Origin: Escherichia coli | GTDB taxonomy: Bacteria; Pseudomonadota; Gammaproteobacteria; Enterobacterales; Enterobacteriaceae | DNA: 64,000 nucleotides | Assembly: GCF_030013205.1 (NCBI RefSeq) | Contig: NZ_CP122648.1 | Direction: 5' to 3' (one strand) | Part shown: positions 5,715 through 7,379 of the stretch, in pieces | Numbering within the stretch: the stretch's first letter is position 1 | Layout: every line of letters starts with the position of its first letter | The notes under the pieces: model-generated | What the model was told of the DNA's origin: nothing | The model's input: only the letters and a program-made list of their open reading frames with translations | Database searches by the model: none | Translations under genes and position numbers: made by a program

Positions 5715-7379
5715 TTAAAACGTTTCCCAGTTCTCCCCGCTATCTGCCACTGCCATTTTACGCGGCGTAGCTGGCGTCACGTTTTTTACCACAGCCGATG
5801 TTTCACGCTGCTGTTGCTGCTGTTGCTGAATCCGGAACACTGCCACAGCTTCGGTCAGGCGACTGGCCTGCTCTTCCAGCGCGGCGGCGGCAGCGGCAGA
5901 TTCTTCCACCAGCGCAGCGTTCTGTTGAGTTACCCGGTCCATCTCAGCAACCGCTAAGCCAGCCTGATCGATACCACGGCTCTGCTCATCAGAAGCAGAA
6001 GCAATTTCGCCCATAATGTCCGTCACGCGGGTCACGGCACTGACAATCTCCGCCATTGTTTCCCCTGCGCTTTCGACCAGCGTAGAGCCAACATCTACTT
6101 TCCCCACCGAGTCTTCAATCAGGCTTTTAATTTCACGAGCCGCCTGAGCGCTGCGCTGGGCCAGATTACGCACTTCACCCGCGACCACCGCAAAACCGCG
6201 CCCTTGCTCACCCGCGCGCGCTGCTTCAACCGCCGCGTTCAAAGCCAGAATATTGGTCTGGAAGGCAATGCCGTCAATTACGCTGATAATATCGGCGATT
6301 TTCTGCGAACTGGTGGAGATATCGCGCATAGTCTGCACCACGTTATCTACCACTTTGCCGCCGCGTTGCGCCGTTTCAGAAGCACTTAACGCCAGGTGGC
6401 TGGCCTGGCGCGCATTTTCGGCGTTCTGTTTCACCGTTGCGGTCAGTTGCTCCATGCTGGCTGCCGTCTCTTCCAGCGAAGCGGCCTGTTGCTCGGTGCG
6501 CGAAGAGAGATCGTTATTGCCGGTAGCGATTTCGCTGGCACCGCTATAGATGGCATTGGCCCCGTTGCGCACATCACCGACGGTACGCATCAGCTCTCCC
6601 TGCATATGGCGCAAACTCTCTGCCAGTTGCCCCATCTCATTAGAGCCATCCACCTCAATCGGTTTCACCAGATCGCCGCCTGCAATATGACGAATGCTGT
6701 CAATCAGGCGATTCATTGGCGCTACCAACGAGGCTTTAATACCGAACCAGACGGCGAAGATGACTGCCAGTACGACGATCATCACGCCCACCAGAATCCA
6801 CATCGCCTGGCTGTAGGAGGCATTATTATCGCTGACGGCGATATCATAGAGCCGATCGTTTTGCTCCATGTAAGCCACATACTGCTTCTCGAAACCGTCC
6901 TGATATCCCTGGGTCGGCTGATCAAAGAACTCGTTGATTTTGCCTGCACCTAACAGTTGGATCAGCTCCGCCAGCGCATTGTGATAAATATCGTAATTAC
7001 GTTTGATCTCTGCCGCTGCGGCGGTGCTCTGACGCGGGTCACGCGGCAACGCTTCGTAATCCGCCCAGTTTTTTTCCGCCTGTTTCAGCGAAATACTGGC
7101 ACTCTCCATCAGCTCAGCAACGGTTGAACCGCTACCAATATTATTCTGATCCATCATGTAGCGGATACCCGCGCGGTTGAGGGTGTTACGCGTCTGCAAC
7201 AACGCGACCCAGCTGCCATTCAGCGTGGATTGCTGCTGGCGAATGGTTTGTAAAACAGTGAAATTTTCTTTGTCATTCTTTAAGGCATTAAAGAACAGAC
7301 CGCCTGATGTCAGTTGTAAAAGGCCAAAAACGGCCAAAACCAGCAGTAAGCTGGTCACAATTTTGATACGTTTTAACAT
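5715..7379 (-). CDS. tsr: Methyl-accepting chemotaxis protein I (serine chemoreceptor)
   Basis: 554-aa ORF with HAMP, methylation helices and C-terminal NWETF pentapeptide. Confidence 0.92.
5808..5828 (-). repeat. CAG/CAA trinucleotide run encoding 7 consecutive Gln in the Tsr C-terminal linker
   Basis: Minus strand reads cagcaacagcagcaacagcag; translated [13 protein letters not shown]. Confidence 0.8.

Follow-up and report, generated by a model that had tools for sequence, protein, structure and literature searches.

A 9-bp coding tandem repeat of one to four copies at the start of the C-terminal tether of the serine chemoreceptor Tsr in Escherichia coli

Results

The tsr locus and its gene product

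The window analyzed here is a stretch of 64,000 nucleotides of Escherichia coli DNA (contig NZ_CP122648.1), and within it lies an lgoT-tsr-btsT locus whose central gene encodes the serine chemoreceptor Tsr (Table 1). The Pfam profiles TarH (residues 1-176, E-value 5e-55), HAMP (residues 217-263, 2e-12) and MCPsignal (residues 327-484, 2e-61) score far above their curated cut-offs and follow each other in the order expected for Tsr, from the TarH four-helix-bundle sensor through HAMP to the MCP signalling domain. The translation ends in ...SGENWETF and shares 99% amino-acid identity with K-12 Tsr. E. coli K_EC180, a swine strain, and several porcine ETEC chromosomes (ETEC4067-4079) match positions 1-20000 of the window at 100% identity, which places the window in a lineage of porcine ETEC type; in identical RefSeq genomes the same ORF is annotated as tsr. 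A preliminary description of the window, made from the sequence alone, had already named the gene tsr, and the order of the Pfam domains, the annotation of identical DNA and the lgoT and btsT flanks all bear this out. Identity and synteny support orthology with K-12 tsr, and from this orthology serine sensing as well as CheR/CheB-dependent adaptation are predicted. On the plus strand, the ORF list of the window has nothing of at least 100 aa across 5808-5828.

The surroundings of tsr vary within the species. Downstream of the gene we found either lgoT, which encodes an MFS transporter (in the window and in K-12), or a TRAP-transporter permease pair (in strains BEN2908, 2779, 3PT and RM14723). 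A 4-bp difference directly after the tsr stop codon divides 104 sequences, among the matches listed, into groups of 75 and 29, and in some strains hpaR takes the place of btsT upstream.

Table 1. Features of tsr in the window
Feature	Position	Strand	Remark
tsr, serine chemoreceptor CDS	5715..7379	-	554 aa + stop; only long ORF across the Gln run
C-terminal tether (linker), Ile517-Gly549	5733..5831	-	33 residues (K-12: 30); PMC10561060, PMC4692393, AlphaFold2
CAGCAACAG x2 + CAG, 9-bp coding tandem repeat, Gln518-Gln524	5808..5828	-	two-unit, modal allele
NWETF pentapeptide, CheR/CheB docking site	5718..5732	-	translation; role per PMC7390727

A 9-bp repeat unit

Read on the minus strand from 5828 to 5808, the repeat is CAG CAA CAG CAG CAA CAG CAG, so that both the sequence and its translation confirm the seven consecutive Gln codons described before. 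Within the 64 kb of the window (CAR)7 is found a single time, and 0 of 100 dinucleotide-preserving shuffles contain it. At 5807-5828 Tandem Repeats Finder reports a period of 9 with 2.4 copies and 100% matches, against only 78% for a period of 3. The longest pure triplet tract is CAGCAG because CAA breaks the CAG run, whereas all 21 bases follow the 9-bp period without a mismatch. Only alleles of 4, 7, 10 and 13 codons were found, which means that the repeat varies in whole 9-bp units, and variation in such steps fits a sequence in which the triplet run is interrupted and the period of 9 is not. The variable unit is hence the 9-bp sequence CAGCAACAG, present in one to four copies and followed by CAG, rather than a single triplet. 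With a perfect unit and alleles of one, two, three and four copies verified by sequence, the repeat is a coding VNTR. The earlier view of a slippage-prone CAG/CAA repeat needs to be corrected accordingly in one respect: the length does change in nature, but in units of 9 bp, and the triplet as the mutating unit is contradicted.

Position of the repeat in the tether

In Tsr, R516 has been taken as the tethering point, which gives K-12 a tether of 30 residues from I517 onward (PMC10561060), and residue 517 has been described as the last conserved position of the kinase-control domain (PMC4692393). Our alignment of 31 orthologues places the last invariant residue before the pentapeptide at F515; N550, E552, T553 and F554 are invariant, W551 is nearly so, and the linker in between is not conserved. 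An AlphaFold2 model built on the same alignment is almost entirely helical up to residue 513, where the long C-terminal helix ends. From residue 520 to 554 its pLDDT stays below 50, and most of a short helix drawn at 519-527 falls inside this low-confidence stretch; in view of that helix, the Gln run may alternatively belong to the signalling helix. Taken together, the end of the long helix, the last invariant residue and the drop in confidence from residue 520 on suggest that the Gln run is the first segment of a disordered tether, possibly with some transient helicity. The run had been placed in the flexible linker leading to NWETF, and this location holds; more precisely, it stands at the tether start. 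The resulting tethers measure 30, 33, 36 and 39 residues for alleles of four, seven, ten and thirteen codons (referred to here as Q4, Q7, Q10 and Q13). Linkers of pentapeptide-bearing receptors have been described as lacking both structure and sequence conservation, with lengths from 29 to 91 residues.

Further along the tether, residue 534 (window 5781-5783, minus strand) is Asn (AAC) in the window and Thr (ACC) in K-12, O157:H7 and most alleles. Among the E. coli alleles fetched, Asn at this site, within ...AVVK[N/T]VTP..., is found in the window only.

Other length variants of tsr

Two further kinds of length variation were noted in the gene. A (GCN)6 coding repeat (5880-5897, minus strand) lies some 90 bp upstream of the Gln run and encodes Ala495-Ala500 in the last helix of the signalling domain, and Tandem Repeats Finder assigns it a period of 6 at 5881-5899. 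This repeat is polymorphic as well: among the matches listed, 10 of 104 sequences have five Ala codons (e.g. strain A10, 553 aa) and one has four. Loss of one residue from a coiled-coil helix would be expected to move the 15 or so residues that follow it out of register. E. coli 3PT (NZ_CM137004) has lost 33 bp in frame between two direct repeats of GCGCTGG, corresponding approximately to window positions 5878-5910 (minus strand), and its Tsr is 543 aa long. The deletion leaves ...QQNAALEEQ..., makes the C-terminal helix 11 residues shorter and takes out the VEES Glu pair, which we take to contain methylation site E493 (K-12 numbering). The 3PT protein may be a genuine variant in nature whose adaptation is altered, or else the allele may be defective.

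Allele frequencies in E. coli

The gene is present in 5,382 of the 5,426 complete E. coli genomes searched. For a census of repeat lengths we used a 93-nt query centred on the repeat, sorted the BLAST matches by identity band and span, and inspected systematic samples of 40-60 rows. Seven codons are carried by about 77% of the 5,382 genomes with tsr, four by about 22%, ten by about 1.2% and thirteen by three genomes; these frequencies are sampled rather than fully enumerated, are accurate to a few percent only, and describe a genome collection rich in laboratory K-12 and BL21 derivatives. The query from the window is matched exactly in 2,312 genomes and at 95-99% identity in a further 1,832, where 19 of 19 sampled rows span 93 nt and thus have seven codons. 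The 90-95% band (205 genomes) is mixed. In the 80-90% band (1,033 genomes) every sampled row spans 84 nt, the length of Q4, including K-12, J53 and BL21(DE3). Approximately 75 genomes gave partial alignments only; the one that was fetched, BEN2908, has Q4 on a different flank.

Two differently seeded searches with a synthetic Q10 query place this allele in about 66-68 genomes, with full-length matches in E. coli HS, LF82, NRG 857C (NRG857C) and MP1, among others, and a Q13 query against the complete genomes returned the three genomes mentioned above. Both long alleles were confirmed at the sequence level, Q10 in HS (557 aa) and Q13 in RM14723 (560 aa). A one-codon allele was sought in the complete genomes and none was seen; the best matches were to Q7 alleles, each joined from two pieces. 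A metagenome scan that allowed any 3-33 bases (1-11 codons) between the conserved flanks agrees with the census: among the matches listed (at least 120 contigs), 90 contigs have seven codons, 25 have four and 5 have ten (75%/21%/4%), and 5, 6, 8 or 9 codons do not occur. The exact window pattern is present in 79 of the 90 seven-codon contigs listed; nine others read QQQQQHQ and two carry other point variants. The window therefore carries the ordinary majority allele of tsr, which is present unchanged in thousands of annotated genomes.

The difference to K-12 and the ancestral length

The tsr gene of K-12 (NZ_CP011343) encodes 551 aa and has CAG CAA CAG CAG at the repeat site. This agrees with the K-12 tether as printed in PMC10561060, which reads IQQQQRETS...SEE and then NWETF. 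Over the whole gene the window and K-12 differ by 25 nucleotide substitutions in 1,644 aligned bases, and the sole length difference is a 9-bp gap inside the repeat. The K-12 length of 551 aa given in the preliminary description and the suspicion that the three additional residues lie in the repeat were both right.

To which side the change went can be judged from relatives. Tsr orthologues in contigs representing one genome per species (from Leclercia, Enterobacter, Citrobacter, Kluyvera, Superficieibacter, Pseudocitrobacter and Hafnia, among others) are 553-557 aa long, mostly 554 aa, and after the conserved ...AVAVFRI they hold a seven-residue segment of the QQ[DE]QQ[KR]A type, such as QQDQQKA, QQEQQKA or QHDQQRA. 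Two divergent alleles from records labelled E. coli also have 554 aa: the Escherichia-type tsr of strain SCPM-O-B-8794 encodes QQAQQRQ at 94% amino-acid identity, and that of strain 2020CK-00188 encodes QQEQQRQ (CAG CAA GAG CAG CAA CGC CAG). Fitch parsimony was applied to a neighbour-joining tree of 68 flank haplotypes (638 columns), rooted on 2020CK-00188. It gives a root state of seven codons, the state of 51 of the 68 haplotypes. The seven-residue segment and the length of about 554 aa in the outgroups, together with the parsimony root, thus point to seven codons as the ancestral length and to the K-12 allele as a derived 9-bp contraction. Two identical 9-bp units may have come from the imperfect ancestral segment by three point substitutions, or the segment may first have contracted and then been duplicated again.

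The two divergent alleles differ from other E. coli tsr alleles by about 52-60 substitutions (2020CK-00188) and by 179-192 substitutions (SCPM-O-B-8794). They may have been imported or may belong to cryptic Escherichia clades.

Recurrence and stability of length changes

Different repeat lengths stand on nearly identical backgrounds. Between BEN2908 (Q4) and strain 2779 (Q7) there are 2 SNPs in the entire gene, compared with 28 between BEN2908 and K-12 (Q4). The flanks of metagenome contig L086 (Q4) are identical over 638 aligned columns to the Q7 haplotype of at least 11 contigs, and a variant marked by CAT (His) was found with 4, 7 and 10 codons. HS (Q10) and RM14723 (Q13) are of different backgrounds, with 32 differences. 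On the tree the parsimony minimum is 10 length changes, compared with 11-17 in 500 shuffles of the tip states, so that repeat length has phylogenetic signal yet is clearly homoplastic; the figure of 10 is approximate because the neighbour-joining tree describes a recombining gene with few sites in 638 columns. These data indicate that the unit has been gained or lost repeatedly, with at least three contractions that appear clearly independent.

Within clones the repeat appears stable. Replicate assemblies of one strain each show a single allele (HS four times Q10, LF82 twice Q10, strain 8178 three times the same), and among the matches listed every K-12 or BL21 derivative has Q4 and every O157:H7 strain Q7. 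With a unit of 9 bp, all alleles are in frame and NWETF is intact in each, which is not what a frameshift switch of a contingency locus would look like. The repeat thus appears to act as a slow VNTR and not as a hypermutable switch.

Discussion

In this study we describe a natural length polymorphism in the tether of the serine chemoreceptor of E. coli. We propose that slipped-strand mispairing or recombination between identical 9-bp units would add or remove one unit, and with it three Gln residues, at a time. Gain and loss of whole units would give the allele series Q4, Q7, Q10 and Q13, in which the window has the common two-unit form and K-12 and BL21 carry the form contracted by one unit. 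Since the segment is an unstructured spacer without conserved sequence, the in-frame changes are probably tolerated, and the polymorphism in length would be close to neutral, altering adaptation kinetics slightly at most. We put the probability of this explanation as a whole, from the common Q7 allele to near-neutrality, at about 0.88. With regard to the preliminary description, the seven-Gln observation is confirmed and its interpretation partly supported, in that the location, the difference to K-12 and the mutability were right and the direction and the unit were wrong.

How much the tether length might matter can be estimated from Tar, for which tethers of 22, 29, 34 and 46 residues have been compared. 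The fitted position of tethered CheR shifts linearly with length, by 0.128 ± 0.048 nm per residue, and such mutants do alter adaptation behaviour (PMC10561060). If this slope applied to Tsr, one repeat unit would shift CheR by approximately 0.4 nm, set against an intercept of 6 nm. The idea that tether length influences the reach of the adaptation enzymes therefore agrees with the published Tar data, though three residues are predicted to have little effect. It is this small predicted shift, along with the variable length of natural linkers, that leads us to regard the polymorphism as nearly neutral. In our literature search we found no description of the Tsr repeat polymorphism and no experiment on natural Tsr alleles; two apparent matches turned out to be a reagent name and unrelated Salmonella PCR targets.

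Three other explanations have to be weighed against the one proposed here. The run was originally called expanded, which would make the window the product of a 9-bp duplication in an ancestral K-12-like run of four Gln codons. Expansion does happen in this repeat, as Q10 and Q13 testify, and the two units of the window match at every base, as they would following a fresh duplication; this identity is the sole point favouring expansion in the window itself. However, the longer form is that of the majority (about 77% of the genomes, 75% of the listed contigs and 51 of 68 flank haplotypes), so that most strains share the run and K-12 with its four codons does not. In addition, two divergent Escherichia-type alleles and about 15 enterobacterial orthologues keep seven residues and about 554 aa, the parsimony root is seven, and Q4 neighbours Q7 on at least three different backgrounds. 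An expansion in the window is thus largely refuted and very improbable. Still harder to believe is that the additional codons come from faulty sequencing or assembly of a low-complexity tract. Some technologies can miscall short repeats, and in some low-coverage metagenome contigs single-base indels occur elsewhere in tsr. Against this, the 93-nt sequence recurs unchanged in 2,312 complete genomes, which many laboratories produced on many platforms; 20 kb of the window match several independently assembled swine E. coli genomes at 100%, and the reading frame is intact up to NWETF. We consider such an error practically dismissed.

The repeat might also serve as a selected dial of tether length (30, 33, 36 or 39 residues) that tunes the reach of CheR and CheB, and with it the kinetics of serine adaptation, by lineage or niche. 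The recurrent length changes on several backgrounds would fit such a role, as would the linear shift of CheR on Tar tethers and the impaired receptor function reported after linker truncation, as cited in PMC10561060. Yet a repeat of about 2.3 copies of its unit lies far below typical hypermutable repeats, the allele is identical in all replicate assemblies of the same strain, and three residues predict a shift of just 0.4 nm or so. Natural linkers have been described as having no conserved length across their range of 29 to 91 residues. There is also no obvious link to host or pathotype among the matches listed, where Q7 is found in strains from swine, cattle, humans and water and Q10 in the commensal HS as well as in the pathobiont LF82. 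An adaptive tuning role is hence unlikely. If it were true, decades of quantitative K-12 chemotaxis work would have been carried out with a minority allele of short tether.

Under the explanation we favour, unit-wise gain and loss of a nearly neutral repeat, the repeat hardly matters for the window itself, since the window has the standard E. coli allele. Its mild value lies in showing that K-12, although it serves as the reference, is not typical: nearly all quantitative work on chemotaxis has used this strain, whose allele is that of a minority (about 22%) and has a tether three residues below the species norm. It has been argued that the Tsr linker (30 aa) is shorter than that of Tar (34 aa), in keeping with closer methylation sites (PMC10561060). 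This argument describes K-12 and not E. coli in general, in which most strains have 33 and some 36 or 39 residues. The natural alleles Q4, Q7, Q10 and Q13 provide ready-made tether-length variants with which tether models could be tested in Tsr.

Compared with known systems, the closest is K-12 Tsr, which is the same gene with lgoT downstream, the same domain order and the same NWETF. It has one CAGCAACAG unit fewer than the window (Q4 against Q7), which shortens the tether from 33 to 30 residues, and the tether substitutions between K-12 and the window are T to N, A to T and E to G. O157:H7 Tsr (Q7) has the same seven-Gln codon pattern as the window, and the Tsr proteins of HS and LF82 (Q10) and of RM14723 (Q13) belong to the same allele series at the same site; the Q7, Q10 and Q13 forms differ in copy number, with two, three and four units giving 554, 557 and 560 aa. 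The Tar linker is similar in kind, an unstructured stretch of some 30-35 residues from the helix end to NWETF whose length sets where tethered CheR concentrates. The Tar variants of PMC10561060, and of Li and Hazelbauer 2006 as cited in it, are laboratory deletions and insertions of 5-12 residues, whereas the Tsr series is a natural polymorphism with three residues per step. Finally, the simple-sequence contingency loci of pathogens are likewise coding tandem repeats whose copy number varies recurrently between strains. The Tsr repeat differs from them in having only one to four copies and a single allele across replicate assemblies, and in a unit that is a multiple of three, so that its changes in length do not turn the gene on or off by frameshift.
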